Shown: positions 33,226 to 62,665, counted from the stretch's first letter. The stretch: DNA of 64,000 nucleotides from Nitrospiraceae bacterium (GCA_919902505.1 CAKKRE010000028.1:10530-74529), one strand, 5' to 3'. Numbers and translations are program-made. The notes: generated by a model not told the origin, from the sequence alone.

Positions 33226-33227
33226 CT

Positions 33228-33347
33228 GGGCGCTGAACATGGCTTCGGGTTTCGTTCTCGCTTCGCTCAAGCCTTCGACGTACTGCCGGGAGTACGCCTC
33301 AGCCTCTCGCTTACTGCGGCCTTGCCCGACAGCCATGTTGAGCGCCC
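33228..33347. repeat. About 120-bp palindromic element, same family as 62541-62665
   Basis: 17-bp closing stem with 1 mismatch (gggcgctgaacatggct / agccatgttgagcgccc); core hairpin cgtactgccgggagtacg at 33279-33296. Confidence 0.8.
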
Positions 33348-33446
33348 GAGAGACCAAGGTTCCGCGGCGGGCTTCGGTCTCACCTGCCTCGCTACGATGC
33401 GCAGAAAGCATCCGGGTCACAACCGAAATGAGGAGCGGTAGAAGCC

Positions 33447-34178
33447 TTACTTAATCGCTCTCTGCTTTTCCCTCAAGAGCCGGAGCATTTCGGTGAGTTC
33501 TTTGCCGAACCGTTCGAGCGCCACGTCCTTGGCTTCGGCCACTGCGGTCTTGTCCTCAAGCGATGGCGCCGGGCCCATGAGCGTCGTTTCCCCTTCCGCT
33601 GTTTGGGTGCCGTACAGATAACCTGTCCGGACATCCCATAACGTACCCTCCATCATGAACAATGCATGGCTTTCGGTGCCGTGGGCGAAGTAGGCGCCGA
33701 TGCCGGTGGCGTACCAGGCGGCATGACTATTGTTATATCGCTCGACGGCGGAGGCCCCATCGATGATCAGAAGCGCATCGGCGTTGTAGCGGGCGGCGGC
33801 CAGGCGAATGTCACGGAGTGTGGTCCCCTGGACCGTGGAGTTGGCGAGCAGGAAACTCTGTTGAAGAATGCCCTCTTCCTGTACCGGCGCGAGCGCACGC
33901 TGCACTCGGTCAGTGTCCGCGCCGACCCAGTCCACTCGTTGCAGCGCCGGCCGGCTCGGAAAGTCCCTGTGTTTGAAAAAGACGGCCAAGCGATAGGGGG
34001 TGGGCAGGCCTGATTGCATCGCCATGGTGGCTGCAATATCCCGGTCGGTGACCACCTCGGGGTGATCGTGAAACGATTCCTGCAGAAGCTGCCGGTTCAG
34101 ACCTCGGGCTCCGGTGCAGGCAGCGACCATGATTGGCAACAGAAGGAGGAAAAGAATGCGCAGAGGAACGGTTCTCAT
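33447..34178 (-). CDS. Hypothetical lipoprotein
   Basis: Hydrophobic leader ending in the lipobox VAAC. Confidence 0.75.
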   Translation of the reverse strand: MRTVPLRILFLLLLPIMVAACTGARGLNRQLLQESFHDHPEVVTDRDIAATMAMQSGLPTPYRLAVFFKHRDFPSRPALQRVDWVGADTDRVQRALAPVQEEGILQQSFLLANSTVQGTTLRDIRLAAARYNADALLIIDGASAVERYNNSHAAWYATGIGAYFAHGTESHALFMMEGTLWDVRTGYLYGTQTAEGETTLMGPAPSLEDKTAVAEAKDVALERFGKELTEMLRLLREKQRAIK

Positions 34179-34185
34179 ACAACTC

Positions 34186-35142
34186 CTATGACGATGTCGA
34201 GGCAATGGGCCTGGTCGGATCGATCTGCGACAGATCTTCCAATGCCAGCATCAAGGCATGGGTGCCGGATCGGCCATGGCCGAGCGTCTGAACCTTTTCA
34301 TATAATTGATGCGCGAGTGTGAGTCCGGGCAAGGTGAGCTGTCGCCGTCGAGCCTCTTCCAGCGCAATGCCCATGTCTTTGATGAAATGTTCGACGAAGA
34401 AACCGGGATCGAAATTGCGGGCTAGAATTCGAGGCGCCAGATTGTCGAGTGTCCAACAGGCGGCAGCGCCGCCGCGAATGGATTGCAACATTCGATCGAG
34501 GTCCAGCCCCGCCTTATAGCCATACAGCAGACTCTCGCACACGCCGATCATGGTGCCGGCGATCACGATTTGATTGCAGAGCTTCGTGTGTTGTCCCGTA
34601 CCTGCATCGCCCTGGTGCACGATTTTCCTGCCGAGGCATTCCAGCAGGGGCATGATGGCATGAACCGCTTTGGTGGCCCCTCCGACCATGATGGAGAGTG
34701 TGGCGTTTCGCGCACCGACATCGCCTCCGGAGACCGGCGCGTCCACGGCAAAGGCCCCGCGCGATTGAGCCGCCAGGGCGATCTCCTGCGCGAGCGACGG
34801 TTCCGTGGTGGTCATATCGATGAGCACCATACCGGGCCTTGCGCCTGCCAATACCCCCTGCTCACCGAAGTACACTTCTCGCACATCCCGGGGGAATCCC
34901 ACCATCGTGATGACCACGTCTGTCTGTTCCGCCACGGCGCGAGGTGAGTCCGCCCACGTGGCGCCCTTGGCGAGAATCGGAGAGGCTTTGCCGCGATTTC
35001 TGGTGTAGAGCGTGAGTCGATAATGGGCAGCCTGGAGATGCTGACACATGGGTGTCCCCATCACGCCGGTGCCGATCCAGCCGACGTGTGTCTCAGTGGG
35101 AGTCACGGGGCGGGGAGATTCTTCAGGGAGAGGATGCGCCAT
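34186..35142 (-). CDS. NAD(P)-dependent 3-hydroxyisobutyrate dehydrogenase / tartronate-semialdehyde reductase family
   Basis: GWIGTGVMG, DAPVSGG, catalytic Lys in TKLCNQ, PGFFVEHFIKDM. Confidence 0.92.
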   Translation of the reverse strand: MAHPLPEESPRPVTPTETHVGWIGTGVMGTPMCQHLQAAHYRLTLYTRNRGKASPILAKGATWADSPRAVAEQTDVVITMVGFPRDVREVYFGEQGVLAGARPGMVLIDMTTTEPSLAQEIALAAQSRGAFAVDAPVSGGDVGARNATLSIMVGGATKAVHAIMPLLECLGRKIVHQGDAGTGQHTKLCNQIVIAGTMIGVCESLLYGYKAGLDLDRMLQSIRGGAAACWTLDNLAPRILARNFDPGFFVEHFIKDMGIALEEARRRQLTLPGLTLAHQLYEKVQTLGHGRSGTHALMLALEDLSQIDPTRPIASTSS

Positions 35143-35145
35143 GAG

Positions 35146-35589
35146 TTATTCCACCAGCGGCGTAATCCGGTTCGCGATTGCTTGCACGACGCCCTCTTGA
35201 TCCATCGCGATCTTTCCACCTTTGAAGCTCAAGGCATAACCTCCATGGCTCGGGGCCTGGACCGTGGCGTCCACCGCCACGCGCGCCCCGTCTTCCACGT
35301 CGGGGTCTTTCACCATCGGTACCCCGCACAGCCCCGGCACGGCGACGGGCAACGTGGCCGTGTCATCTTCCAGGCTGAAAAGGTAGCCGCCATAACAGGT
35401 CGAGCCGGCGGGGATCTCATAGGGATCGAGCGGCTGGACGTTGCGTACCGTCCCCCGCAGGGTGATCTGACGCAAGTGGAACAGAGCGGGATCGGCCAGC
35501 ACCTCTTGCACGGTCACAGCTTCCTGAGCGGCGACCATGCCGGTATGTGGGACGAGGAAGATCGTCATGCAAGAGAGTAGCCTCGCCAT
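35146..35589 (-). CDS. Exported hypothetical protein (possible OB fold)
   Basis: Signal peptide; ITLRGTVRNV strand pattern; two Cys. Confidence 0.6.
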   Translation of the reverse strand: MARLLSCMTIFLVPHTGMVAAQEAVTVQEVLADPALFHLRQITLRGTVRNVQPLDPYEIPAGSTCYGGYLFSLEDDTATLPVAVPGLCGVPMVKDPDVEDGARVAVDATVQAPSHGGYALSFKGGKIAMDQEGVVQAIANRITPLVE

Positions 35590-35722
35590 GAGGCTGCTCC
35601 GGGTCTGGGGAAAATCGTGGATCATCGAGAGCATTCTACCATTCTTTGTTTCGATCATCGCCCTCATAGGCTTTCGTTCTGCGAGTCGATATAATCGCCG
35701 GCGATCACAGGGAGGCACAGCG

Positions 35723-37093
35723 ATGAGCGACTTGCAGCGACAGTTAGATATCTACATCAAGGACGCTCGCCCGCGCTACGAAGACATGCTCGGGCAGGCC
35801 GTCGAAATTCCCTCTATCAGCATGGATCCTCACCATGCGCCGGATGTGCGACGGATGGCGGAGTTGGCGGCGCAATATCTGCGGGCTGCCGGCGCGGAGG
35901 CCCACATCGTCGAGACCCCGGGCTATCCGGTTGTGTCAGGTGGATGGACGGTCGATCCGAGTTACCCGACCGTCACCGTCTACAATCACATGGATGTTCA
36001 GCCGGCGCAGGAGCCGGAATGGAAACAGGCCCCCTTCGCGTTTCAGAACGAGAGCGGCATCTACCGCGGGCGCGGGGCGACGGACGACAAGGGCCCGGCG
36101 TTGGCGGCCTTGTTCGGCGCGCGCTATGCGATCGAGCAGGGGGTGCCCATCAACGTGCGATTCTTGTGGGAACTGGAAGAGGAAAACGGCAGTCCGAGTT
36201 TTGCGGCGGCTATCAGGAATCGCGCGGCAATCCCACGTCCGGACTCGGTGGTGATTTCGGATACGATCTGGCTGTCGAAGAATCAGCCCGCGATGCCCTA
36301 TGGGCTACGCGGTTTGCTCGGCGCGCGCCTCGTCCTGCGGACCGGCTCCAAGGACGCCCATTCGGGTGTGACCGGCGGAGCGGCGCGTAATCCGCTGGCC
36401 GAGTTGATGGACATTGTCCATGCCTGCGTGGATGCCAAGACCGGTAAGGTGAAGATTCCGGGCTTCTATGAAGATGTGGTCGAGCCGACAAAGGCAGAGA
36501 TCAAGAGTTTCCTGCAGTCGGGATTTCAAGTCAATCGTTTCAAGCAAGCCTATGGATTCAAGACGCTTCGCACCCAGGATCCGGCAGATGTCATGCGACG
36601 TATTTGGGCCGCGCCGACGTTTGAAGTGCACGGTCTCGTCGGCGGCTACCACGGACCGGGGGTGAAAACGGTGGTGCCGGGGCATGGGGAGCTGAAGGTC
36701 AGTATGCGGCTGGTGCCGAACCAGACTCCGGAGAAGGCTTTTGCGCTGCTCAAGAAACATGTCGCCAAGTTGAATCCGGATGTGAAGGTCGAGCGCGAGG
36801 GGATGCTGCATCCGTTCAGAGGCGTGTTTGACGGGCCGTACGTCGATGCGGTGAAGCGAGCGGTGAAGGCGGGATTCGGCAAGGAGCCGGCCTTTATCCG
36901 CGAAGGCGGCTCGATCGGCGCGGTGGTGACGATGCAGAAAGCCTGGAACGTTCCGATTCTGTTCATGGGCCTGAGCCTGCCCGAGCACGGCTACCATGCG
37001 CCGAACGAGTATTTCGACTGGGGTCAGGCCTCAGGCGGCATGAAAGCCTTCGTGCATTATTTGGGAGAGCTGGCGAAGATGGGAAAGAGGTAA
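35723..37093 (+). CDS. M20/M25/M40 metallo-dipeptidase
   Basis: GGAGG RBS; YNHMDVQPA, GRGATDDKG, ELEEE, GGSIG, HAPNE. Confidence 0.93.
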   Translation: MSDLQRQLDIYIKDARPRYEDMLGQAVEIPSISMDPHHAPDVRRMAELAAQYLRAAGAEAHIVETPGYPVVSGGWTVDPSYPTVTVYNHMDVQPAQEPEWKQAPFAFQNESGIYRGRGATDDKGPALAALFGARYAIEQGVPINVRFLWELEEENGSPSFAAAIRNRAAIPRPDSVVISDTIWLSKNQPAMPYGLRGLLGARLVLRTGSKDAHSGVTGGAARNPLAELMDIVHACVDAKTGKVKIPGFYEDVVEPTKAEIKSFLQSGFQVNRFKQAYGFKTLRTQDPADVMRRIWAAPTFEVHGLVGGYHGPGVKTVVPGHGELKVSMRLVPNQTPEKAFALLKKHVAKLNPDVKVEREGMLHPFRGVFDGPYVDAVKRAVKAGFGKEPAFIREGGSIGAVVTMQKAWNVPILFMGLSLPEHGYHAPNEYFDWGQASGGMKAFVHYLGELAKMGKR

Positions 37094-37123
37094 GCGAGAA
37101 ACGGACTCAGTTGGAGGATATCG

Positions 37124-39019
37124 CTATAGCACTTGTGTGCCAATGGCTATCACGCGGCGTGCCAACTTACGTGAGACGCGGGTCTTAATGACGACGTAGG
37201 TGGTGCCGGGGTATGTGATGTCGTTCGTCAGGGTATTCATGAGCTTTTCTTCGTCCCAAAGCAATCCTTTGGTGGTGACAGCCAACACATGTACAGGTTG
37301 TGACGGTAGGTGTTCGACTTGTTTCTGAGCGATCCAGGCGTGTTTGACCTTCGTGATTGACTGGAGTTGCAGCCGGAGAGCTTGAAGGGCTTCGATGGAG
37401 AGGGTAGACGAGATGAGCGGATCTTTTGCCGACACAGAGCGTCGCTCCTGCCGAGCGAGCGCTTCTTGGTCCAGCTGGTGCTCCCCTCGCAAACGCCATT
37501 GTTCTGCCAATGCCTTGTCTCCACGACAGAGCGCATAGCCATAGGCCAATTCACAGGCGGGAAGATTCAACTCAAACTGCTGCGTCGCTCGGTTCAAGTG
37601 GTGTAACCCTGCTTCGTCTTCGCGTTGGACTAGGATCCTTCTGATCGCTAGGTCGGCGGCCAGGTCATCGGGGTATTTCTGCTGATAGGTACGATAGATC
37701 GGGAGCGGATCAGTCAGAGCCTCATACTGCTCAGTGAGGCTGGCGAGACTCCAGAACTCCCCCTGTGAGAGCTGCTCCGGTTGTTGCTGGCGAAGCTCGG
37801 TGAGTTTGTTTCGTGATTCGCGAATGTGGTCACAGCGCTGCTTCCATGCCTCCCGATTTTCTTCAATCCACTGTGCGTCAAACTCTAAGAGAATCTTTTC
37901 CACATGTTTCCCCAACCACTTCTCCGCGGCCGTGATTTTGGGGGTGATAGGCTCAGGGAGGGTGACTTTCAGTGCAGCCAATCGGTCTCGCAGTGCCGGA
38001 TGGGTGTCAGCATACCCTGTTTCTACAGCAACCGCGTTTCCGAAGATCTCCTGCCATCGGGCATTGTCGATCGCCTGGTGTTGGATAAACTGGGCCAGTC
38101 CGGTGACTGGATGGGATGGAGGTAATGGCGTTTCTTTTGTTTGCTCCATCAAGGGTGTCCAGTACTCTCTATCTATGACGGCTTGTCGGACATCGAGACT
38201 GACAAGAGCAGATGCGGAAATGCGGGGGGATGTGAGTTTGGCGGAAATCGCATCGGCCTCATATTCGTTGGCGCGTGCCAGGGCGAAGGAGTATGCATGG
38301 AAGTATGGTGCGTACCAGTCGAAAAATTTGGCCAAGATTCTTCCGCCCCAATGATCGGCTTGATCAAAGGCACCCATGACGCGATACCACGCAATCCGAA
38401 CGCGATAGATCCAGCCGCGAAATCGACTGTGATTTCCCGAGAGGTGCCCAAGTTCGTGTGCGATCACCGCGCGCGCCTGTTCGGGAGAGAGGGCGAGCAG
38501 GAGTGGAAGGCCCAAGATCAGGGTGTTGCGATACCACCCGAACACTCCGAGACGCGGCGTCTGGACGATGGCAGCATTCAGTTCATTGGTGAGCAGGATG
38601 CGGTGAATTCTGGGTGTGCAAAGCGGTTTCCGAAGACCATCCGCTTCTATGAATAGTTGCGGAACCTCGGCTCGCGTGACTTGGTAGCCTGTTGGGTCCT
38701 CCAACCGAACCCATAGGGCTCGTACGATCACACAGGCGAGAAGGAAGAAGCCGAAGAGTAGTTTGCCTTTGATGAGAATCCACCAGGCATGCCCCTTGGT
38801 CGCCAGCCAGAGGAGGGCAACGCCGATGCCAAAGAGCAAGATGGCCATGCCAAAGAGCACGATATAACCAAGGATGGCAAGGAGGGCGAGCTTGGTCTCG
38901 TACCAGCCTGGGTTCGCCACCAGGTGGTGTTCCGCACGTCTAACGAGCTCCTCAAGTTGTCGGCGGCGTTGTGTGACGGTCATCCCCTGATGCTCATGTG
39001 ACTCTACGAAGTCTAGCAT
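37124..39019 (-). CDS. M48-family membrane zinc protease with a C-terminal extension
   Basis: Two N-terminal TM segments; NAAIVQ, AHELGH, EYEADA, THPALRDRL. Confidence 0.9.
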   Translation of the reverse strand: MLDFVESHEHQGMTVTQRRRQLEELVRRAEHHLVANPGWYETKLALLAILGYIVLFGMAILLFGIGVALLWLATKGHAWWILIKGKLLFGFFLLACVIVRALWVRLEDPTGYQVTRAEVPQLFIEADGLRKPLCTPRIHRILLTNELNAAIVQTPRLGVFGWYRNTLILGLPLLLALSPEQARAVIAHELGHLSGNHSRFRGWIYRVRIAWYRVMGAFDQADHWGGRILAKFFDWYAPYFHAYSFALARANEYEADAISAKLTSPRISASALVSLDVRQAVIDREYWTPLMEQTKETPLPPSHPVTGLAQFIQHQAIDNARWQEIFGNAVAVETGYADTHPALRDRLAALKVTLPEPITPKITAAEKWLGKHVEKILLEFDAQWIEENREAWKQRCDHIRESRNKLTELRQQQPEQLSQGEFWSLASLTEQYEALTDPLPIYRTYQQKYPDDLAADLAIRRILVQREDEAGLHHLNRATQQFELNLPACELAYGYALCRGDKALAEQWRLRGEHQLDQEALARQERRSVSAKDPLISSTLSIEALQALRLQLQSITKVKHAWIAQKQVEHLPSQPVHVLAVTTKGLLWDEEKLMNTLTNDITYPGTTYVVIKTRVSRKLARRVIAIGTQVL

Positions 39020-39142
39020 CGGCTGAAACTAGCCTGTAATCTGCTGAAAACACAGAGCTATTTTATGGTCTGGCGTACGGCGGAGGCGTAATGTGACTGG
39101 TGAGAGAACGGAAGCAGTCGGACTGGCGCAGGGATCAATGCT

Positions 39143-40122
39143 CTATTTAAGCGACTGCATATCGATCACAAAGCGATAGCGTACGTCGCCGCGGACAAGA
39201 CGGTCGTAGGCGGCGTTGATCTGTTGGATGGGAATGACTTCCACATCGGCGCCGAACTTGTGTTTGCCGCAGAAGTCGAGCATTTCCTGGGTCTCCTCGA
39301 TCCCGCCGATCAACGATCCGGCCAGTCGCCGCCGGCGCATGATCAAGGGAAAGGCGTAGAGCTGCGCGGGCTTATCAGGAGCCCCGACCAGAATCATAGT
39401 GCCGTCGGTTTTCAGCAATTCCAGATAGGCATTCAGATCATGGGTGCTGAGACGGTGTCCAGGATGAAGTCGAACTGTTTGGTGAGTTGGGTCAGGGTCT
39501 CCGGTTTCTTGGTGGAGTAATAGGCTTGTGCGCCCAGCCGTTTCGCATCGGCCTGTTTCTTGTCGGAGTGGCTCAGCGCGGTGACGTGGGCGCCGAGTGC
39601 GGTGCCGATCTTGACGGCCATGTGCCCGAGACCACCCAGCCCGACTACGGCGAGCCGATGTTTCTTACCCACCCGCCAATGCCGCAACGGGGAGTAGGTG
39701 GTGATGCCGGCGCACAAGAGTGGCGCCGCCTCCTCAGGTCGCAACCGTTTGGGAATCCGCACGATGTAGCGTTGATCGACGACGACCTTGGTGGAGTATC
39801 CGCCGTAGGTCGGTGTCACTCCGTCTCGCTCTTTGCCGTTATAGGTGAAGGCGAGATGGCCGTCGCAATATTGCCCCAGACCTTGCTTGCAGGCCGGACA
39901 TGCCCGGCAGGAATCGACGAAGCAGCCGACCCCCACCGTTTGGCCGACTGTGAATTGTTTGACGGAAGCGCCGACCGTTTCAACCGTGCCGACGATTTCA
40001 TGTCCGGGCACCATGGGAAAGAGCGATCCACCCCATTCGTCCCGTGCCTGGTGCACATCCGAATGGCAAATCCCGCAGTACTGGATCTTGATCAGCACAT
40101 CCTGCCGGCCCACCTCGCTTCG
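39143..40122 (-). pseudogene. Zinc-dependent NADP alcohol dehydrogenase (cinnamyl-ADH/YahK-like), 5'-truncated and frameshifted
   Basis: CGICHSD, GHEIVG, CxxCxxC, CAGIT, GLGGLGH; split into 39433-40113 and 39143-39418 by one missing C; no start codon or RBS before EVGRQDV. Confidence 0.85.
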
Positions 40123-40587
40123 TTATGGTGTCGGGGCCGGCTGATGTGTGTCAGGTTCGAGTGTGATGCCGAATGTCGATGGGTCTTGTTCCCACGCACC
40201 CGGCGCAATTAGGCCGAGTAAGGGGAGGAGGAATATCGCTCCACCGACGACGTCGACAATTCCCATGCTACTGAGTTTTCGGCCCGTCATGCGGGACTGG
40301 GACTTGTATCCAGGCTTTTGTACTTCGACGGCAAGGTCTCCCCGCCGGGGGACCTGATACTGCAAGGGAGTCGCTCCCGCAGCCGTGCCGTTGATGAGGA
40401 CCTGCGCACCCGGTGGGTCAGAGATGACCGTGAGCTGTTGTGAGTTGCCTCCGAAAATCGAGCAGCCGGTGAGGGTCAGATGGGAGGCGATGACGAGTGC
40501 GACAGTGGCACACCGGTAGGCGTGAACCGTTCTGGATGTGATAGGCATAGACTCCTCCCTGGAGATGATGGGCGACATGGTTAGCAT
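40123..40587 (-). CDS. PEGA-domain exported protein or lipoprotein
   Basis: LTGC lipobox-like; SDPPGAQVLING..GATP..KPGY PEGA pattern. Confidence 0.8.
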   Translation of the reverse strand: MLTMSPIISREESMPITSRTVHAYRCATVALVIASHLTLTGCSIFGGNSQQLTVISDPPGAQVLINGTAAGATPLQYQVPRRGDLAVEVQKPGYKSQSRMTGRKLSSMGIVDVVGGAIFLLPLLGLIAPGAWEQDPSTFGITLEPDTHQPAPTP

Positions 40588-40626
40588 AGGACACGCAGGT
40601 TGAGAAGGCGGAGAAGGCTGGAGTGC

Positions 40627-40663
40627 GCGGGGCGTTGGAGTCAGGAGTACCCCAACGCCCCGC
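40627..40663. other. 12-bp GC-rich hairpin just downstream of the 580-aa gene
   Basis: gcggggcgttgg / ccaacgccccgc; no U-tract, so it is not called a terminator. Confidence 0.4.
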
Positions 40664-40674
40664 TCCCTGTGTTG

Positions 40675-42417: not shown

Positions 42418-42483
42418 TAAAAGAATGTCACTGTACCACGTGGCTCTTTTCAGGTGAAAGGGGCGTGCGGAGGCGATGCACGA

Positions 42484-42969: not shown

Positions 42970-42976
42970 GATTGGG

Positions 42977-43276: not shown

Positions 43277-43304
43277 GGCGGTGCTTCTTCTTGACTATAC
43301 CAAA

Positions 43305-43937: not shown

Positions 43938-43948
43938 ACGCGGGAGCG

Positions 43949-53043: not shown

Positions 53044-55479
53044 ATGAGCAAGACGTACGATCATCAGGCCCTCGAATCGAAGTGGCAGACCTATTGGGAG
53101 ACGCATCGCCCGTTTCGGGCGTTGGACGATCATTCCAAGCCCAAGTTCTATTGCCTCGATATGTTCCCATACCCGTCCGGGTCGGGTCTGCACGTCGGGC
53201 ACTTGGAAGGGTACACCGCTACGGATATCGTATCCCGCTATAAACGGATGTGCGGCTTCAACGTGTTGCATCCCATGGGGTGGGATGCGTTCGGGTTGCC
53301 CGCGGAACAGTATGCGGTGAAAACCGGCGTGCATCCTGCCATCACCACGGCGCAGAACATTGCGACCTTTAAACGGCAGATGAAGCGAGTCGGGTTGTCT
53401 TACGATTGGGAACGCGAGCTCAGCACGACCGACCAGGACTACTATCGTTGGACCCAGTGGATTTTTCTGAAGCTGTTCGAACGGGGCCTTGCCTACGTAG
53501 CGGAAGTGCCGGTGAACTGGTGCCCTGCCTTGGGGACCGTGCTGGCCAACGAAGAAATCGTAGACGGCAAAAGCGAGGTCGGCGGGTTCGATGTCATTCG
53601 CAAGCCGATGCGGCAGTGGGTGTTGAAGATCACTGCCTATGCGGAGCGATTGCTCGAAGATCTAACCTTGGTCGAATGGCCGACCAGCACGCTCGAGATG
53701 CAAAAGAATTGGATTGGCCGGTCGGTCGGCGCCGAAGTCGATTTTCCCTTGGCCGACACGACGGGCAATCTGCGCGTGTTTACGACCCGCCCCGACACGC
53801 TCTTCGGTGCGACCTATATGGTATTGGCGCCGGAACATCCGCTCGTCGACGTGGTGGCGGCGCCGGAGCAGCGTGAGCAGGTGACGGCCTACCGCGATGC
53901 GGCGTCCCGCAAGAGCGATCTGCAGCGTCAGGAACTGGATAAGGTCAAGACCGGTGTCTTTACCGGCGGGTATGCCGTCAATCCGGTGAACCAGGAGCGC
54001 CTGCCGATCTGGATCGCCGACTATGTGCTTATGAGTTACGGCACCGGCGCGATTATGGCGGTGCCGGCCCATGACGAACGTGACTGGGCCTTCGCGACGC
54101 AATATCACCTGCCGATCCGGGAAGTCATTCAAGGTGGGCAGGTGGACCAGGCGGCCTTCGTCGAGACGGACCGGGGACGCGTCGTCAACTCCACCACGCC
54201 CGATGGGTCGTTCTCAATTGATGGACTGCGACCGAGCGAAGCGATCCCAAAAATAACCGCCTGGCTCGAAACCAAGGGCAGGGGCAAGAAGACGATCAAT
54301 TACAAACTCCGGGACTGGCTCTTTGCCCGGCAGCGTTATTGGGGCGAGCCATTTCCTATCGTGTGGGTCGACGGTGAGCCCCGTCCCTTGCCCGAGGAGC
54401 AATTGCCGCTCCCATTGCCTGAGACCAAGAATTTCAAACCGTCCGGCAGCGGCGAAAGCCCCTTGGCGAATCTCCACGATTGGCTGGAGACGACGGATCC
54501 TGTGACCGGAAAACCGGCGCGACGCGAGACGAACACCATGCCGCAATGGGCCGGGTCCTGCTGGTATTACCTGCGGTTCATCGATCCGAAGAATGCCCTG
54601 CAGGTGGTCGATCCGGCGAAGGAGCGCTACTGGATGCCGGTGGACCTCTACATCGGCGGCAGCGAACACGCGGTGCTGCATCTGTTGTATAGCCGGTTCT
54701 GGCACAAGGTGTTGTTCGACGCCGGGGTGGTCAGCACGCCGGAACCGTTTAAGAAGCTGGTGCACCAGGGCATTGTGTTGGGCGAAGACAATCAGAAGAT
54801 GTCGAAGTCGCGTGGCAACGTGGTGAACCCGGACGAGATGATCGACCAGTTCGGGGCCGATGCGGTGCGGCTCTATGAAATGTTCATGGGCCCGCTCGAA
54901 TCCATGAAGCCCTGGAGTACCCGTGGCGTGGAAGGCATCACGCGATTTCTCGATCGTGTCTGGCGATTGATGATCGGCGACGACGGTGCGTTGAGTCCGG
55001 CGGTTTCGGATGCCGAGCCGACAACCGAGCAGCTGCGGCTGCTCCATTACACCATTAAAAAAGTGACCGACGATATCGAGGCCCTGCGATTCAACACCGC
55101 GATCTCGCAGATGATGGTGTTTACGAACGACATGACGAAGCTGGAGCAGCGGCCGCGCCGTCTACTGGAACCGTTTGTGTTGTTGCTCTTGCCGTTTGCG
55201 CCGCATCTGAGTGAGGAGTTGTGGGAACGTCTCGGTCAACAACCGAGCGCCGGCCAGCAAGCATGGCCGCAATTCGATCCCGCGTTGGTGGTCAGCGATC
55301 GGTTGACGATCCCGATCCAGGTCAACGGAAAGCTCCGGGGAAAACTCGATGTCGACGCCGGGGCGTCACGCGAGCAGCTGGAGCCTCTGGCTAAAAAAGA
55401 AGTGGCCGAATGGCTGCAGGGGAAAGAGCCGAAGAAGGTCATTTACGTCGAGAAGAAATTGATCAACTTCGTGGTGTGA
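53044..55479 (+). CDS. leuS: Leucine--tRNA ligase
   Basis: [15 protein letters not shown] (HIGH motif), KMSKS, RQRYWG; start moved from 52870. Confidence 0.98.
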
Positions 55480-55483
55480 TGCC

Positions 55484-56119
55484 GTGCACCGGTACCTGTC
55501 AGCTTGTATTATATGTCTTCTGGCGATGACCATCACCGGCTGTGGCTATCAGTTCCGGGTGCAAGGCGCTGGGCCCACGGTCGGGGGTGCGCCGGAGGCG
55601 GAGACGAAGCGGCCACATGCGCCACGACTGGCCATCCTTCCTATTGCGAACAGCACCTACGAAGCGAATTTTGAAGTCAAGCTGGCGAACTACCTGCGTC
55701 GGGAATTCTCGGCCGGCGCGGGGGCGGAAATCGTGGGCCCCTCGGCGGGTGCCGACCTCTACATGTCCGGACAGATCATGCAGATTCTGTTGCCCACCCT
55801 TAGTTTCGACCAGACCACGACGTTTGAAAGCCGGGTGGAAATGCTCGTGAGTGTGAGGATCGAAGAGGCCAAAACGAAAAAGGTCGTCTGGTACCAGGTC
55901 GCGAAGGGAACCTCTGAGTTTTTTCTGACCCAGGATCTGCAATTCAACCGGGTGCTGCAGAATCGGGCGTTGGAGCAGGCGGGTCGGTTCGTTGCGGAAG
56001 ATCTCGCCTCACGATTCCTGCTCTTTCTGGATACGGGCGAGTTAGAGAAGGCGTTGCAGCGTCCGGTGAAGGCCGAGGCCGCTCCGGCCGGCGGAGCCCC
56101 GCCTGCCTTGGCGCGCTGA
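55484..56119 (+). CDS. lptE: LptE-family lipoprotein
   Basis: ITGCGYQFR lipobox; conserved leuS-lptE-holA order. Confidence 0.8.
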   Translation: MHRYLSACIICLLAMTITGCGYQFRVQGAGPTVGGAPEAETKRPHAPRLAILPIANSTYEANFEVKLANYLRREFSAGAGAEIVGPSAGADLYMSGQIMQILLPTLSFDQTTTFESRVEMLVSVRIEEAKTKKVVWYQVAKGTSEFFLTQDLQFNRVLQNRALEQAGRFVAEDLASRFLLFLDTGELEKALQRPVKAEAAPAGGAPPALAR

Positions 56120-56140
56120 CGAGATGGGAGCTCTCCACGA

Positions 56141-57250
56141 ATGAGTGCCTCAGTCATGAGTATGGAACTGCCACAGTCCCTCGCGCGTAGCGGGGTGGCG
56201 CCGCTCTATGCCGTGGTGGGCGAGGAAGACTATCTCCGGGACCAGTCCGTTGCCGCGTTGAAGGCCGCGGCCCTGGGATCGGCGGCGGACAGCGGCTTCA
56301 ATCACGATATCTTTCACGGGGATGACTGCTCGGTTGAGGATGTGTTGGCTTGCGCGGCGGAGATTCCGGTGTTCGCCGAACGCCGCGTGGTGGTCTATAA
56401 ATCTGTCGAAAAGCTCCCGGCCCGGGAAGGCGAAAAACTTCTCCCCTATTTCGCGGCTCCCAACGACACGACGACGTTGATCGTGGTGGGTGCCAAGCTG
56501 GACGGGCGGATGAAATGGACCCAAGCCTTGACGAAGCGGGCGGTGACGGTCAATTGCGCCCCGTTGCGCGACGCGCAGCTCTCGACATGGATCCGCCAGG
56601 AGGCGGCGGCATTGGGAGTGCGCATCCACGAGGAGGCGACGCAGTTACTCAAGGAGGTGGGGAACGAGTCACTCTACGCGGTGAAACGGGAGTTGGAGAA
56701 GCTTGCCGCCTATGTGCCGCCAGACCGAACCGTGCAATCGGTGGATGTCGAGGCGCTGAGGGGGACCGAGTCCGGTGCATCGGTGTTCGATCTCATGAAC
56801 GCCATCGGGGTGCATGATCATGGACGGGCATTACGAATCCTTGCCAGAAACCTGGAAAATGGAGAGGCTCCGCTCCGGATTCTCGGCGCCCTGGTGTGGC
56901 AATACCGACGGCTGTGGAAAATGAAAGAGCAGGTCAAGTCAAGCGGTCGGGAAGGCGAGGCCGCCAGGACGCTACGGATGGACCCCTCACGAGTGCGTGG
57001 TTTCCTGGCGCAATTTTCAGACGCGCAGCTGACGCAGACGTTTCAGTGGTTTTTGGAAACCGACTCGAAGCTCAAAGGCGGGAGTGGAAGTGCCCCCGTG
57101 CGTGTGATGGAGGATTTGTTGTTTCGGCTCTGCGGGCAGCCGCCGAAACCAGCATCACCGGTGGAGCCTGTGCATCCAACACCACCGGTCCCGCGCCCAT
57201 CAGGTTCGAGACCGGTGTCGAATGTCAGAACCGTTACGCGGAAGCGGTGA
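56141..57250 (+). CDS. holA: DNA polymerase III delta subunit
   Basis: LYAVVGEEDYL, PVFAERRVV, ELEKLAAY, SVFDL; synteny. Confidence 0.92.
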   Translation: MSASVMSMELPQSLARSGVAPLYAVVGEEDYLRDQSVAALKAAALGSAADSGFNHDIFHGDDCSVEDVLACAAEIPVFAERRVVVYKSVEKLPAREGEKLLPYFAAPNDTTTLIVVGAKLDGRMKWTQALTKRAVTVNCAPLRDAQLSTWIRQEAAALGVRIHEEATQLLKEVGNESLYAVKRELEKLAAYVPPDRTVQSVDVEALRGTESGASVFDLMNAIGVHDHGRALRILARNLENGEAPLRILGALVWQYRRLWKMKEQVKSSGREGEAARTLRMDPSRVRGFLAQFSDAQLTQTFQWFLETDSKLKGGSGSAPVRVMEDLLFRLCGQPPKPASPVEPVHPTPPVPRPSGSRPVSNVRTVTRKR

Positions 57251-57509
57251 TCGCGTTCACGCGTACGGTGAGCCGGGAGACGCGGCGCGAGGCCGTGTTG
57301 GGCTTTAAGACACCCTTAGTCACCGCTTTGCTCAACGCTGACGTGGCTTCCCGAAGGGTGGCCTTGGCTTCATCCGGCTTCTTGGCCGCGATCGCATCCT
57401 GAACCTTGCGGAGGATGCTCCGGACCGAGCTGATGGTGGAGCGGTTGCGCAAACGACGCTTCTCAGATTGACGGGCACGGCGAATCGTGGATTTGTGGAC
57501 AACAGGCAT
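57234..57509 (-). CDS. rpsT: 30S ribosomal protein S20
   Basis: HKSTIRRARQSEKRRLRNRS..KGVLKPNTASRRVSRL. Confidence 0.97.
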   Translation of the reverse strand: MPVVHKSTIRRARQSEKRRLRNRSTISSVRSILRKVQDAIAAKKPDEAKATLREATSALSKAVTKGVLKPNTASRRVSRLTVRVNAITASA

Positions 57510-57623
57510 ACGGATTCTCCTACGTTCAAAGCTTGAGCTTGTAACATAGGATGAGAAGAGAGGTCAAGGACACTGAAAGGAGTCAGCCGGGCCTCGAGGC
57601 AACCCGGGGGTAACGGCGTACAC

Positions 57624-58343
57624 ATGATGACACGGATTGATGCACGAGATCGGTTGATTGTCGCGCTGGATGTTTCCTCCGCGGCGGACGCGGATGCGCT
57701 GGTGGCTCGCATGGGAGACCAGGTGCGATTTGTGAAAGTCGGCCTGGAGTTGTACACGGTGGCGGGGCCGGACATCGTCCGGAAGCTGGTGGACCGTGGA
57801 AAGCGGGTGTTCCTCGATCTCAAGTTCCTCGATATTGAAGAAACCGTCCGGCGTGCGACGGCCCGGGTCGCCGCGATGGGTGCCACCTTTCTGACCGTCC
57901 ATGCGAATCGAAAAGCGTTGATTGCGGCGGTGCAGGGACGGGGATCGTCCGATCTCAAACTGCTGGCGGTGACGGTGCTGACCAATTTCGACGGGGAAGA
58001 TTTACGGGAGATGGGCATTCAGCGAAGCGTCCAGGATTTGGTGACGGCGCGGGCCATGCTCGCGGCCGAAGTGGGCTGCGACGGCGTGGTGGCGTCGGGA
58101 GAGGAGCCGCAGGCGATTCGTGCCAAGGTGGGACCGAATCTGGTGATCGTGACCCCCGGGGTCAGGCCGGCGGGAAAAGGGACGGATGATCATGCGCGAG
58201 TGACGACACCGACCCAGACGATTGCAGCCGGGGCCGACTATCTGGTGATCGGTCGTCCTATTCGCGATGCTCAGGATCCTCCTGCCGCCACGGCGGCTAT
58301 CCTCGAAGAAATGCAAGCGGCCTTCGATTGCCGGGGGCGTTGA
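57624..58343 (+). CDS. pyrF: Orotidine-5'-phosphate decarboxylase
   Basis: LIVALD, KVGLEL, DLKFLDI, VTPGVR, VIGRPI. Confidence 0.96.
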   Translation: MMTRIDARDRLIVALDVSSAADADALVARMGDQVRFVKVGLELYTVAGPDIVRKLVDRGKRVFLDLKFLDIEETVRRATARVAAMGATFLTVHANRKALIAAVQGRGSSDLKLLAVTVLTNFDGEDLREMGIQRSVQDLVTARAMLAAEVGCDGVVASGEEPQAIRAKVGPNLVIVTPGVRPAGKGTDDHARVTTPTQTIAAGADYLVIGRPIRDAQDPPAATAAILEEMQAAFDCRGR

Positions 58344-58456
58344 CGGTCAAGTCCCAAGTTGATTTCGTCCATGCGACCGGGGATACAGAATGCGCCGCGA
58401 CTTCGCCCGGCCATTCTACGCAGCAAAAGCTGAGTCAGGGTGAGGTCTCGGGGCGG

Positions 58457-58486
58457 TTGCGACTGTTCTTCGGGGTTTGTTAAGAT
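58457..58486 (+). promoter_or_regulatory. Candidate sigma-70 promoter for tRNA-His
   Basis: TTGCGA-N18-TAAGAT with an extended TGn -10. Confidence 0.45.
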
Positions 58487-58510
58487 GCGCGTTCATCGTT
58501 GACCTTGTGT

Positions 58511-58588
58511 GGTGGGTGTAGCTCAGCTGGTTAGAGCGCCGGATTGTGGATCCGGAGGTCGCGGGTTCGAAACCCGTCACTCACCCCA
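58511..58588 (+). tRNA. tRNA-His(GTG)
   Basis: G-1, acceptor stem GTGGGTG/CACTCAC, anticodon arm CCGGA-TTGTGGA-TCCGG, TTCGA T-loop, C73 discriminator, encoded CCA. Confidence 0.97.
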
Positions 58589-58625
58589 ACGGTTGCGGAC
58601 ACGGATCACTCAAGCGGGTAGCCAA

Positions 58626-59000
58626 ATGACCGGTGGCAACAAACAGGTCGCTCCATTGGCCCCGCGCTCCTCGCCGGCCACGGTCGCCTCTACATTTCAG
58701 TTGCGCTCGTTTCGTCGTTTCCCCGTTCAGTGTTCTGTGTATTACTCCAGCGATGCGCTCCAGGGAACCGGCGTCGCCTGGAACCTCTCCCTCAATGGGT
58801 GGCGCGTTGACGGGACCCATCCGGTTGAGCCGGGTACGGTCGTCACCCTCTGCGTCTTTCTTCCCGATCAGCACCCCACCGTGTTTATAGACCGCGCAGT
58901 CGTGCGGTGGTCGCGTGGGCAGGAATTCGGGATTGAGGTGAATGAGATCAAGGCCGATGAGCATGCTCGCCTCGAACAGTTCGTCACGGCCTTAGTCTGA
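58626..59000 (+). CDS. PilZ-domain protein 1
   Basis: RSFRR (RxxxR) and NLSLNG (NxSxxG); WSRGQEFGIE. Confidence 0.88.
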   Translation: MTGGNKQVAPLAPRSSPATVASTFQLRSFRRFPVQCSVYYSSDALQGTGVAWNLSLNGWRVDGTHPVEPGTVVTLCVFLPDQHPTVFIDRAVVRWSRGQEFGIEVNEIKADEHARLEQFVTALV

Positions 59001-59163
59001 CCGCTGCCCTTCTCCATTTTTCTTTTTCCGATCTGTGAGATTGCGAAGCGGGACTGCCTGCCCTGACGAGAAACTGAATATTCTTGGCCATTCCCAGCGA
59101 GTTGAGTAGACTGAGTCGTCGCGAGGCTGAGACTGCATCGAGCGCTCTCCCTCGCCGGAAATC

Positions 59164-59508
59164 ATGGCTCAGTCACAGACATCTCGTTCCCATTCCCGTG
59201 TGCCCGTCAGCTGCTTCCTCTATTATCTTGGGGAGGGCCTGGTCGGAACCGGCAAGGTGTGCGATCTTTCGGTCAAGGGCTGGCGGATCGACGGGGATAA
59301 ACCGGTCACGGTCGGCATGAAACTCACGTTGCGCGTCTTTTTGCCTGACCAGCCGAAGGCGATTGATGTGGATGGGGTGACGGTTCAGTGGGTGCAAGAC
59401 CGTGTCTTTGGGCTTGAAACCGTCAGGATGAGCGCTACCGCCCAAGCACGCATTCACAAATTTGTGGAGTCAGTGCTCAAGGAGTCGGGATCTTCACGAG
59501 TTGCATGA
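59164..59508 (+). CDS. PilZ-domain protein 2
   Basis: RSHSR and DLSVKG; VQWVQDRVFGL. Confidence 0.9.
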   Translation: MAQSQTSRSHSRVPVSCFLYYLGEGLVGTGKVCDLSVKGWRIDGDKPVTVGMKLTLRVFLPDQPKAIDVDGVTVQWVQDRVFGLETVRMSATAQARIHKFVESVLKESGSSRVA

Positions 59509-59732
59509 TCCCGTGATCGTTCATCGATTATTCGACTCTCCGACCTAGTCTGGGTCCGGTTCGCAGCAGCCGCTCTCGTTTCCGTTCCCTCTTCCTGCCG
59601 GTTCGCCGGCGATACTACGCATCTCTCTGAGCAGGATACAGACGGCCGGGCCGGAGAGCCCCCACCTTTCGGGGACTATCAGGCTATTCGTTGTTTTTCA
59701 TATTCTGCCGAGGCGTTTGCTTGGAGGAATGG

Positions 59733-60098
59733 ATGGAACAACAGAATCGCCCGCGTTTTATCGTCGAGTGTACCGGATCACGTTCCGAAGATGGTTTGTT
59801 GGTGTGGAACGGCCGGATGCTCGATCTCTCGATTCCGGGATGGTCGCGGACTGGACTCAAAGGATTGCAAGCGGGAGACTTACTCCAACTGCATTTGCAT
59901 ATTCCGGGGCAGCCCAGGCCCCTCTCGGTGAGGCTGGCGACGATCCGCTGGGCCAGCGAGTCGAAGCTGGGGGTCGATCCCATTCTTATGGATGCCGATG
60001 ACCAACTCCGTTTGAACGACTTCGTCAGCGCCCATGACACCACTCCTCCGTTCAGTACGGATCGGAAAGAACAGATCGTCATTTCCGACGCCGGATAG
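59733..60098 (+). CDS. PilZ-like protein 3 (partly degenerate)
   Basis: GGAGG RBS; NRPRF (first Arg of RxxxR missing), DLSIPG, IRWASESKLGV. Confidence 0.75.
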   Translation: MEQQNRPRFIVECTGSRSEDGLLVWNGRMLDLSIPGWSRTGLKGLQAGDLLQLHLHIPGQPRPLSVRLATIRWASESKLGVDPILMDADDQLRLNDFVSAHDTTPPFSTDRKEQIVISDAG

Positions 60099-60255
60099 CC
60101 GATTCGAATGCTCCTCTGTTTGTCCTCGCTCTCCTTCCTTACCTGCCGGCTCGTGATTCTGCGTACATGCGCCTTGTGTCATCGAGGCCCGCCGCCTATC
60201 GGACTGCGGTGTTGGTGAAATGTGTGAGCGAGATGCGGAAGGTGTTCAAGTGGCG

Positions 60256-60271
60256 TGGCGGCAGGATTGCT
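60256..60271 (+). promoter_or_regulatory. Sigma-54 promoter candidate
   Basis: TGGCGGCAGGATTGCT, GG-N10-GC, about 127 bp before the glycosyltransferase; overlaps a TTGACA that has no clear -10. Confidence 0.45.
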
Positions 60272-60397
60272 TGACATCATCGAGCAAGATGGTGTCTCTT
60301 AGCGAAGACACATTGTCACACACACCAGCCTTTCGCCGGTCCAGTTCGGTCATGTCATAGATGGTTTGCCAGGGCGGAGGCGTGCGAGACTTGACGT

Positions 60398-61699
60398 ATG
60401 ACGCCTGGCCCCCAACTTCCCGATGCGACCCATACCACCCCGCTGACGCCTGAAACGGAGGCGCAGGTCGACCAATTCGCCCATACGGATATTTTGGTCG
60501 GGATTCCCAGCTTCAACAATGTCGAAACCATCGGGCATGTCGTCAAGGCGGTGAGCGCCGGCCTGGCCAAGTATTTTCCGGAAGCCCGCGCCGTATTGGT
60601 GAATTCGGACGGTGGCTCGACCGACGGGACGCAGCAGGTGGTTTCGCAGGCCGTCGTCGATCTCAAGACCCTCTTCATCGGCGATCAGCAGAGCTCGCTC
60701 CACAAGATCATCACGCCGTATCACGGCATTCCCGGTAAGGGGAGCGCCTTTCGCACGATTTTTGAAATTGCGCGTCGCTTGAAAGCCAAGGCCTGTGCCG
60801 TCGTGGACTCGGATCTGCGGAGCATCACTCCGGAATGGATCGAGTTGTTGGTGAGCCCGGTGTTCGAGCAGGGGTTCGACTACGTCGCGCCCTATTATCT
60901 GCGGCACAAGTATGACGGGACCATCACCAACAGCATCGTCTATCCGCTTACGCGAACCCTCTATGGGCACCGGATCAGACAGCCCATCGGCGGCGATTTC
61001 GGCTTTTCCGGCCAGTTGGCCCAGCACTATCTCGACAAGCATGTGTGGGAATCGGAAGTGGCTAAATTCGGCATCGACATCTGGATGACGACGGAAGCGA
61101 TCGCCAGCGGAGCGCGCGTCTGTCAAAGTTTTCTGGGCGCGAAGATCCACAACCCCAAAGATCCGGCGGCGGACCTGTCGGCGATGTTGGTACAGGTGCT
61201 GGGCGCCGTGTTCGCGTTGATGGAAGATCACTATGCGGTGTGGGGCAAGACGGATGGCTCGAATGCCGTGCCGTTGTTCGGCTTTCAATACGAGGTCGGG
61301 GTCGAGCCGGTCAACGTCAACGTCGATCGGATGATCGGCACCTTTCGGCAGGGCCTGAGCGATCTGGGGACGATCTGGGATCAGATTCTCGCCCCCGGCA
61401 CCAGACAGAGTCTGCGCCCGTTGGGGACCTGTTCAGCGCAAGATTTTCGCATTGCCGACAACCTGTGGGCACGGGTCGTGTATGACGCCGCCGTGGCCTA
61501 CCGCAATCGTGTGTTACCCCTCGATCATGTATTGAAGGCCTTCACTCCTTTATATCTGGGGCGAACCGCTTCGTTTGTGTTGGATACTCAGGGCCTCACA
61601 TCGAGCGAGGCCGAGGGCCGCATCGAAGCCTTGTGCCAGGCGTTTGAAAAGGATAAGTCTTATCTGGTGGCGCGCTGGAATGAGCCACATGCAGGGTAA
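60398..61699 (+). CDS. GT-A glycosyltransferase, glucosylglycerate/mannosylglycerate synthase-like
   Basis: GIPSFNN, NSDGGSTD, PGKGSA, VDSDLRS (DxD), RQPIGGDFG, FGIDIW. Confidence 0.8.
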   Translation: MTPGPQLPDATHTTPLTPETEAQVDQFAHTDILVGIPSFNNVETIGHVVKAVSAGLAKYFPEARAVLVNSDGGSTDGTQQVVSQAVVDLKTLFIGDQQSSLHKIITPYHGIPGKGSAFRTIFEIARRLKAKACAVVDSDLRSITPEWIELLVSPVFEQGFDYVAPYYLRHKYDGTITNSIVYPLTRTLYGHRIRQPIGGDFGFSGQLAQHYLDKHVWESEVAKFGIDIWMTTEAIASGARVCQSFLGAKIHNPKDPAADLSAMLVQVLGAVFALMEDHYAVWGKTDGSNAVPLFGFQYEVGVEPVNVNVDRMIGTFRQGLSDLGTIWDQILAPGTRQSLRPLGTCSAQDFRIADNLWARVVYDAAVAYRNRVLPLDHVLKAFTPLYLGRTASFVLDTQGLTSSEAEGRIEALCQAFEKDKSYLVARWNEPHAG

Positions 61700-61756
61700 T
61701 GCGCGCGACTCGATCCATCTGAAGGCAGGCTGCAGTAGAGGCCGGAGGAGGGAAGT

Positions 61757-62464
61757 ATGAAAGAATTTTTTGAGAAGGGGCTACTCGATCCCCTGGAGTT
61801 GATGGCGCGGCAGGTGCTTGCGGTGTTACCGAGCCTGTTGGCGATGTCGATCATTTTCTTCGCGGGATTGGTGGTCGCGTGGACCGCCAGTCAGACGCTG
61901 GAGCGGTTGCTGCGGGTGGTCGGGCTGGATCGATTGTTCGATCGACTGGGCGTGACGGGCGCATTGCTGCGCGGAGGGGTCAAAACCGATCCGTCACGTC
62001 TGGTGGGGCAAGCGGCCTATTGGCTGGTCATGATTTTCGCGACCGTCGCCGCCCTGGGTGCGCTCAATCTCCAGCCGATCAACGATTTCGCCAAGTCGTT
62101 CCTGGCGTATGTGCCGCATCTCGTGACGGCGGGTCTCATTCTCGTCGCCGGTTGGTTATTATCCAACTTTGTGTCCCAGGCGGTTCTGATCGCCGCCGTC
62201 AACGCAGGGTTGCCTCCGGCACGACTGGTGGCGACCTGCTCGCGATGGGGGATTCAACTGTTGGCGGTCGCCATGGCGCTCGAGCAACTCGGGATTGCCC
62301 AGAATATCGTGGTGGTGGGATTCGGCATTACACTCGGTGGGCTCGTCATGGCCGGGGCGATTGCATTCGGACTGGGCGCCAAGGATTTGGCGAAAGACTA
62401 TCTTGAGCGCGGGCTTTCGATCCGCACGCGGGACGGGACGCCCGATGACTTGCGCCATCTCTAG
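61757..62464 (+). CDS. MscS-associated TM-helix repeat (CmpX-like) membrane protein
   Basis: Two LPS/VPH-type TM hairpin repeats; AIAFGLGAKDLA. Confidence 0.8.
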   Translation: MKEFFEKGLLDPLELMARQVLAVLPSLLAMSIIFFAGLVVAWTASQTLERLLRVVGLDRLFDRLGVTGALLRGGVKTDPSRLVGQAAYWLVMIFATVAALGALNLQPINDFAKSFLAYVPHLVTAGLILVAGWLLSNFVSQAVLIAAVNAGLPPARLVATCSRWGIQLLAVAMALEQLGIAQNIVVVGFGITLGGLVMAGAIAFGLGAKDLAKDYLERGLSIRTRDGTPDDLRHL

Positions 62465-62540
62465 CAGGCTGCGGAAACACTCGATGGGTACGCAATAGAT
62501 TACGATCCACTCATGCGCCGTGTCGATTTGACAATGACCC

Positions 62541-62665
62541 GCAGGATGCGCAAAAAGGCCGTCCAGCAAGGCCGCAGCAAGCGACGAGGCGAATCGTACT
62601 CGCGCAGTACGGTGAGTCTCTGAGCGCCGCGAGAACGCCGCTGGCGGACTTTTCCCGCATCCTGC
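62541..62665. repeat. About 125-bp palindromic element, same family as 33228-33347
   Basis: Closing stem gcaggatgcgcaaaaag / cttttcccgcatcctgc; core hairpin cgtactcgcgcagtacg at 62595-62611; a similar end (ctagcaggctgcggaaa) at 62461. Confidence 0.8.

Follow-up and report, generated by a model that had tools for sequence, protein, structure and literature searches.

We analysed a stretch of 64,000 nt (here called the window) from a 4.24-Mb Nitrospira genome (G000, 59% G+C; C28:10530-74529), which carries two copies, A and B, of a rod-shaped foldback repeat. Copy A sits between the convergent genes 31993..33225 (plus strand) and 33447..34205 (minus strand); its 3' end and the TGA that closes the plus-strand gene 31993..33225 are 2 nt apart, and the copy lies on the strand opposite to that gene. 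Copy B lies behind the gene at 61757..62464 and is continued on its left by an arm that makes it part of a longer element, a miniature inverted-repeat transposable element (MITE). The features at the two loci were as follows.

33226..33350, minus strand: copy A, an old diverged member of the A/B family (covariance model, 115 bits; orthologous copies)
62461..62464, plus strand: left copy of the target duplication, CTAG, whose TAG is the stop codon of the gene 61757..62464
62465..62540, plus strand: left arm of the 200-nt MITE, consisting of the left inverted repeat CAGGCTGCGGAAACACTC (62465-62482) and a spacer of about 60 nt
62541..62665, plus strand: copy B, a 125-nt rod hairpin (covariance model, 120 bits)
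62665..62668, plus strand: right copy of the target duplication, CTAA, as read from the flank and from comparison with empty sites

Copy A, read on the minus strand at 33228-33347, and copy B, on the plus strand at 62541-62665, shared three blocks in the same order, as an initial annotation made from the sequence alone had claimed: GCAAGGCCGCAG(T/C)AAGCGA, the hairpin CGTACT-loop-CAGTACG, and TGAGCG..GCGAGAACG. These blocks read GCAAGGCCGCAGTAAGCGA, CGTACTCCCGGCAGTACG, and TGAGCGAAGCGAGAACG in copy A and GCAAGGCCGCAGCAAGCGA, CGTACTCGCGCAGTACG, and TGAGCGCCGCGAGAACG in copy B. Each copy was predicted to fold into one long imperfect rod (-62.1 kcal/mol for A and -65.6 kcal/mol for B; z scores against shuffles of -5.7 and -4.9, respectively), and in each the terminal stems still paired, again as annotated. 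Given their covariance model scores (E of about 1e-25), A and B are therefore members of one family. Their closing stems, described as completely exchanged, do differ; in the family alignment, however, the 27-nt 5' arms were identical at 16 of 27 positions (59%), and CTCAA.A.GG / CC.T.TTCAG was kept in both, so that the stems of this pair have diverged rather than been swapped. Intermediates between A-type and B-type stems exist among family copies.

As the initial annotation had suggested, the genomic copies were collected and a covariance model was built. Iterated nhmmer searches started from B recovered 145 loci in the genome (95 full length), and the covariance model, built on 53 diverse copies, gave 121 matches; the family is hence a rod-shaped repeat of about 125 nt present in about 120 to 145 copies. 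Mean column identity among the 53 copies was only 71%, yet CAAGGCCGCAG, GTAC..GTAC, GAGAAC, and TCAAA/TTTCA were invariant or close to it. RNAalifold returned a single rod for these paralogues, with compensatory double changes in 31 of 38 pairs. The core is laid out as CAAGGC.., then GGAGGCGTAC-loop-GTACGTTGAGG, then ..GAGAACG or CAACG, and its internal loops are purine-rich and include tandem G.A oppositions.

In twenty-one recent copies, B among them, the sequence ran on to the left for about another 76 bases. The resulting long form of 200 nt reads CTAG|CAGGCTGCGGAAAAACTC...CCGCATCCTG|CTAR, with terminal inverted repeats CAGGCTGCGGAAA.. on the left and ..TTTCCGCATCCTG on the right, and occupies 62465-62664 in the window, between CTAG (62461-62464) and CTAA (62665-62668). 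The consensus of its first 18 nt is CAGGCTGCGGAAAAACTC, from which the window copy differs at one base (AAACAC). The 3' arm of copy B is the right inverted repeat of the MITE. Its 5' arm repeats that sequence internally in inverted form, except that C (TTCAAAAA) stands where the true ends have G (TTGAAAAA), which gives a conserved C.C mismatch.

The target duplication was direct and not inverted: all 4 copies whose left flank is CTAA had CTAA as their right flank too. Empty sites in three genomes (G169, G179, and G172; flanks 92 to 96% identical) read ...CCATCTCTAA|GGCAACC..., with a single CTAA and no element, and a fourth (G168; flanks 98% identical) read CTCTAG|GCAACC, likewise without an element. 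Where the element is missing, the gene 61757..62464 ends on that TAA (or, in G168, on the TAG); in the window its stop codon is the TAG of the left duplication, on which the full B element starts. Genome G158 carries an element at the same site as copy B, with a perfect CTAA/CTAA duplication and 92 nt of the hairpin interior deleted. The junction of this deletion (G158:C14, L143, the orthologue of window positions 62461-62668) reads ..ACCCGCAGG|CGGACTTTTT... Although its flanks are closer to those of the window than the flanks of G158 are, G168 is empty, which leaves three possibilities: an independent insertion, a precise loss, and recombination from strain to strain. Short, non-coding, dispersed copies with inverted repeats, a direct duplication, and ends shared with an insertion sequence (IS) are the attributes of a MITE.

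The IS that shares these ends was identified via DDE transposases and their relatives in other genomes. The genome contained 16 DDE_Tnp_1 and 4 Y1_Tnp matches. One IS, present as a single copy at C6:153007-154391, is bounded by the inverted repeat CAGTGTGTTGACAAAC and flanked by a 4-bp duplication, ATAG; its transposase frame is open over 405 codons and has the Pfam domains DUF772 (1e-22) and DDE_Tnp_1 (6e-8). The same-genus genome G059 carries a 1,316-nt IS beginning TTAG|CAGGCTGCGGAAAAACTC, whose 18 terminal nucleotides equal the consensus terminus of the long form. Inverted repeats of further relatives were CAGGATGTTGAAAAAGGCC (G193), CAGGCTGTTGACAAAC (G231), and CAGG(C/G)TGTTGAAAAAC (G201, G191, and G227), and each such variant had a matching arm variant among the copies in our genome. 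The outer 16 to 20 bp of the closing stem are therefore the transposase-recognition end, which changes with the IS. The duplications made by these ISs (ATAG, TTAG, and CTAG/CTAA; the IS5 pattern is a 4-bp YTAR), together with DDE_Tnp_1 and an InsH-type N-terminal domain, place them in the IS5 family. Of the explanations offered initially, a MITE core passed between transposase families fits best, since the arm variants match the inverted repeats of different IS5 relatives, and the transposases with matching ends that were to be looked for exist in G059 and among those relatives. When our genome was searched by short-pattern pairing for a full-length IS having ends of type B or C, the results were too noisy or empty.

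We conclude that A and B are one old and one recent member of a Nitrospira-wide non-autonomous transposon (MITE) family, a reading to which we give a probability of roughly 0.78.

Only 1 of the 121 covariance-model copies lay inside a predicted gene. Because the YTAR target holds TAA or TAG and intragenic insertions are lost, copies accumulate at stop codons. The earlier remark that A, B, and a third element at 18350 all lie just after stop codons holds as to adjacency, whereas distance and strand vary; the element at 18350 lies 51 nt past a TAA. Hairpins directly abutting a stop codon were antisense to the gene in question in 63 of 68 cases (63:5). The reason is that the element extends beyond the rod, which forms just its right part; a left end placed at the stop codon puts the rod about 77 nt off, as in 17 long forms, all sense cases. 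An extreme antisense rule acting at stop codons was considered and dropped, being explained by this position of the rod.

The covariance model matched 53 of the 151 genomes of the phylum. It reached its scoring maximum in almost all genomes of the same family, where the MITE is nearly universal. Among the matches listed by an exact-pattern scan with one genome per species, all that were named were Nitrospira, Nitrospiraceae, Nitrospirales, or Nitrospirota, including N. moscoviensis NSP M-1 and N. lenta. Distant Nitrospirota families had tens of 123- to 128-nt rods per genome by the covariance model, and these kept CAAGGC.., GGAGGCGTAC-loop-GTACGTTGAGG, and ..CAACG within unrelated outer arms (for example, TTCTAATTTTAATTCAG... 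flanked by TAA, or AGAGGCGGTGGAGAT...). The idea of exchanged stems, which fails within the A/B pair, is thus borne out across the phylum, where the same core occurs in unrelated arms. Viral contigs scanned for the core yielded 0 matches.

In at least 21 same-genus genomes, whose flanks are as little as 76% identical, an orthologue of copy A lies between the same two convergent genes; two genomes lack it, and in one 1.5 kb stands in its place. Copy A is ancient. Among 20 distinct orthologues, in which 33 pairs were scored, 94.4% of cells were paired, and both sides had changed in 11 of the 33 pairs, compared to 4.3 in shuffles (0/500) and 1 to 3 with slid partners. Intermediates on the strand shown comprised 35 G.U and 12 A.C cells. 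Selection on folding, proposed initially, is supported by the compensatory changes at this locus and among the paralogues; the RNA and RAYT readings attached to that proposal fared less well, as described below. In the genome in which copy A has been replaced, the two convergent genes are separated by about 1.5 kb of other DNA without a rod (G159:C1:2941700-2943400, L174).

Orientation of the copies followed replication. In the complete genome G059, 46 minus-strand and 14 plus-strand copies lay up to 2.33 Mb and 42 plus-strand and 14 minus-strand copies beyond, and GC skew changed sign between 2.15 and 2.7 Mb. The top strand of the rod was on the C-rich strand in 86 of 119 copies in G000 (local GC skew, P = 1e-6) and in 88 of 116 in G059. 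By the usual rule the G-rich strand is the leading strand, an assignment supported here by the 64% of genes that lie on it. Between co-directional genes, copies were mostly antisense (38:8) when the genes were on the G-rich strand and mostly sense (15:8) when they were on the other strand (Fisher P = 1e-4), and the same was seen for old copies only (antisense, 20:3; sense, 7:2). Since gene-relative orientation flips with the replication strand of the genes, replication direction, and not transcription, is the primary variable; orientation driven by transcription was ruled out by these 2-by-2 gene-strand tables.

The bias rose with age, taken as nearest-neighbour identity. In G000 it was 10/19 among copies at least 96% identical to their nearest neighbour and 22/24 among those below 80% (Mann-Whitney P = 0.0016), and in G059 it was 9/17 in young versus 66/82 in old copies (Fisher P = 0.014), i.e., an increase from 53% to 92% and from 53% to 80%, respectively. 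The top strand, which is purine-rich and whose conserved loops set G.A opposite A.G beside the GTAC stem, folded better than its complement in 74 of 92 copies in G000 and 80 of 100 in G059. This asymmetry was absent in the youngest copies and grew with age. It was present in both orientation classes (41/45 and 11/11 old copies), which argues that strand-specific mutation is not the cause; a replication- or transcription-associated C-to-T bias as the source of the G.T excess on the top strand was likewise rejected, as it predicts the opposite strand. We infer that new copies insert without regard to orientation and that their later loss does depend on it; copies with the top strand in the lagging-strand template would be the unstable ones. 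For long palindromes in Escherichia coli, work on SbcCD has established that hairpins on this template are cleaved and that slippage occurs there. The deleted copy in G158 is an example of a loss of this kind.

The same data bear on whether the rod is primarily a functional structured RNA (a stabiliser in the 3' untranslated region, a terminator, or a small RNA), with its mobile features secondary, which we consider improbable. Strong covariation with G.U intermediates on one strand (35 versus 12 cells at copy A and about 2.6:1 in paralogues), better folding of the top strand with RNA parameters by 5 kcal/mol, the location of copies directly after stop codons, the retention of copy A between convergent genes across the genus, and a GC-rich inner stem between an A-run and a T-run, like a bidirectional terminator, would all suit such an RNA. 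However, relative to the flanking genes the better-folding strand was mostly antisense where the context was leading-strand (38 of 46) and mostly sense where it was lagging-strand (15 of 23), tracking replication; 63 of the 68 hairpins abutting a stop codon were antisense to that gene; and young copies showed no strand asymmetry. In most copies TTTTT follows the inner stem whichever strand is read; a simple consensus terminator scan did not call the rods, the stem-loop being too long for it. No Rfam family corresponded to the rod: at gathering and permissive thresholds there was no relevant match, the window holding only a tRNA at gathering score, and the best sub-threshold match was sX12 (18 bits against a cut-off of 106). 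The structured RNA substrate envisaged in the initial annotation is disfavoured by this lack of an Rfam match and by an orientation that follows replication and not transcription.

Less probable still is that the copies are only decaying derivatives of IS ends with no constraint on the interior, their covariation stemming from master copies and gene conversion. Arms that equal IS inverted repeats are what this predicts, covariation among paralogues can reflect subfamily structure, and mosaic or nested copies and a deletion derivative are ordinary repeat turnover. It does not predict that CAAGGCCGCAG, GTAC..GTAC, and GAGAAC stay invariant or close to it in 53 copies averaging 71% identity, that the same core recurs in other families of the phylum with unrelated arms, that double changes with wobble intermediates arise at one immobile orthologous locus, or that orientation is filtered with age. 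The counter-case that accompanied the original proposal, namely, decayed ends of one IS without covariation, was right in that the ends are IS ends and wrong in that the covariation and the conservation of the core are real.

The least probable reading is an element like REP/REPIN or IS200/IS605 moved as single-stranded DNA at the fork by a Y1 HUH transposase (RAYT/TnpA), the REP/RAYT-like substrate suggested initially: the replication-strand bias, the conserved internal loops with strand-specific folding, and the four Y1_Tnp genes (C16:42815, C7:28481, C12:107794, and C79:30792) agree with it, but there is a direct 4-bp target duplication with a single copy in empty sites, the termini are those of a DDE insertion sequence, recent insertions are random in orientation (10/19 in G000 and 9/17 in G059; with the duplication, this sets the family apart from the IS200/IS605-type [PATE] elements, which make no duplication and follow the lagging-strand template in their orientation as soon as they insert), no family copy adjoins a Y1 gene (the nearest, at C12:112102-112221, is about 4 kb away), and the polarity is opposite to that of IS608-type elements, the better-folding strand being on the leading-strand template here.

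The explanation that we favour, an IS5-linked MITE family, is as follows. The element is moved in trans by an IS5-family DDE transposase (DUF772 plus DDE_Tnp_1) that recognises terminal inverted repeats of 16 to 20 bp, CAGG(A/C)TG..GAAAAA, and inserts into YTAR (mostly CTAG or CTAA) with duplication of 4 bp, genic insertions being lost. The 125-nt rod is the right-hand part of the element, made up of the right inverted repeat, its internal inverted copy, and a core of about 85 nt between them. Its closing stems are the ends recognised by the transposase; they vary by subfamily in step with the ends of the related ISs, and both arms have to stay matched. The core may be a cis-acting or host-tolerated structured module that selection keeps while the ends swap. 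After insertion, copies with the better-folding purine-rich strand in the lagging-strand template would be lost more often, probably by hairpin-driven deletion or cleavage, and nearly all old copies would consequently come to have the top strand on the leading-strand template.

Several observations weigh against this account or loosen parts of it. This genome has no intact autonomous IS whose ends match exactly; the single relative, at C6:153007-154391, is only 11/16 identical in its ends, the G059 copy has an in-frame TGA, and the transposase family has a patchy distribution (10 of 81 family genomes) even though the MITE is nearly universal. Many older hairpins have no recognisable left end or duplication, and a plain MITE model does not account for an interior that is more conserved than the inverted repeats. 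As to orientation, age is confounded with subfamily, so that insertion biases may have differed from one subfamily to another, and the old copies of G000 and G059 are partly orthologous and hence not independent. The gene calls come from a simple home-made caller (3,558 genes covering 82% of the genome). Compensatory changes at the copy A locus could partly stem from gene conversion by other copies.

It is conceivable, if rather doubtful, that the core of about 85 nt is a portable strand-specific module acting as folded single-stranded DNA or, less likely, RNA, as it has been joined repeatedly, throughout Nitrospirota, to different transposon ends, kept in situ by compensation, and retained by the host only with its purine-rich, well-folding strand on the leading-strand template. 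If so, either the rod would be read by a host factor that is itself conserved, or replication would give it a role or set a constraint on it, and the MITEs would be a natural record of the filtering of hairpins by fork direction.

Literature searches found no publication describing the family. It is apparently an unpublished MITE family with an identified IS5-family partner, ordinary in kind; its three unusual features are a core that outlives and outranges the ends, compensation in situ, and an age-dependent lock of orientation to replication direction. MITEs derived from IS5-family ISs have been described, e.g., the IS1106-related MITEs of Neisseria (PMC11602168). The present elements are like these in being short and non-coding, in their IS5-family terminal inverted repeats and 4-bp YTAR duplication, and in their many copies and presence/absence polymorphism between strains. 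They are unlike them in that conservation is highest in the interior and not in the inverted repeats, that this interior is also found in further MITE families of the phylum, that a third, internal repeat copy turns the right half into a 125-nt rod, and that old copies are oriented by replichore. The Correia (CREE/NEMIS) elements of Neisseria and the ERIC/IRU elements of enterobacteria are likewise foldback repeats of about 100 to 155 bp, intergenic and frequently close to genes, with inverted ends and a TA-containing target, and their transcribed hairpins can terminate transcription or be processed. Our family differs from both in its use of YTAR with a 4-bp duplication rather than TA, in its IS5-family partner, and in the absence of a recognised IHF-type site; to our knowledge, neither a replication-orientation bias nor a phylum-wide core has been reported for Correia or ERIC/IRU elements.

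With REP/BIME/REPIN sequences and their RAYT (PMC3116915, PMC2817692), the family has in common abundant intergenic palindromes, mosaic or nested arrangements, and compensatory stem evolution. It is set apart from them by the target duplication, the DDE-type ends, a length of 125 to 200 nt, and the lack of any copy next to a RAYT gene. Integron attC sites are conserved in structure and variable in sequence and are recombined as one folded strand; like them, the rod is an imperfect palindrome with a strand-specific fold brought about by unpaired or mismatched bases. The recombinogenic strand of sedentary chromosomal integrons is reported to lie on the leading-strand template, and the polarity of the better-folding strand in our family is that of such attC sites. 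Unlike attC, the rod has no R-box motifs (GTTRRRY) and no integrase association, and the copies are transposon copies with target duplications.

Nitrospira bacteria are of key importance both as nitrite oxidisers and as complete ammonia oxidisers, and their genomes carry at least 100 copies on stop codons. Annotators should expect spurious small open reading frames and contig breaks at these sites. The orientation bias offers a direct, testable genomic read-out of orientation-dependent hairpin loss at forks or, alternatively, points to a replication-linked function.

The third element of the window belongs to a separate family, C, and comprises the following features.

18354..18541, plus strand: family C MITE with inverted repeats CCCGCATTATTCATGA, between CTAG duplications at 18350-18353 and 18542-18545
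18421..18466, plus strand: central hairpin GACGCGTAC-loop-GTACGTGGAGGG, the sole part of family C that resembles the A/B core

Family C has about 32 full copies in the genome, with direct YTAR duplications (TTAG..TTAG and TTAA..TTAA). The initial annotation had assigned the core hairpin of A and B to this 196-bp MITE, which holds for the central hairpin of about 46 nt: it scored 20.7 bits against model positions 42-87 in a 501-nt search, a score that would be marginal genome-wide. The element is otherwise a separate MITE with ends of its own. GGATG/CATCC replaces GTAC in the central hairpin of other family C subfamilies. Orientation relative to replication showed no bias (18:13). No full-length IS with the family C inverted repeats was found in this genome. 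Three copies of the element are 100% identical (C28, C15, and C54), and contigs break inside its ends, which points to recent activity. Two further elements (C16:8467-8645 and C46:25578-25756) have family C-type ends and a different interior with GCAAGCGAGGCC..GCAGGCGTAC..GTCGAGGAGGCCGAACGAGAAC; these interiors resemble a degenerate A/B-type core in family C arms.

Composite forms were also seen in the A/B family, 22 copies in the genome keeping the family arms and carrying extra modules in a nested, mosaic architecture (e.g., C56:42017-42251, C8:8833-9059, C6:32165-32401, and C20:24722-24953). The modules include a GAGGTTCACGACGCGCGGAATAACGCGCGTCACG hairpin, one within the GTAC loop (..CCCACCCCGAGCCTGCCAAGACAGGCTC..), and one of the CCTCGTCCGTCGTTCGTGAAACG type. 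Other small IS5-family ISs have inverted repeats directly after CTAG or CTAA (GGAGCCTGTCCGA, GGGCGTGTCCTCAA, GGTTCTGTTGACATTC, and GGAAGGTCTGATT); they lie at C39:76385-78005, C82:18777-20325, C72:6498-7391, C72:9246-10061, C30:1230-2077, and C23:42834-44009, so that YTAR-targeting elements are common in this genome. Just downstream of copy B, a sigma-70-like promoter match (ATGAGA-18-TAAAAT) occurs at 62700-62729, upstream of the plus-strand open reading frames starting at 62716 and 62741.

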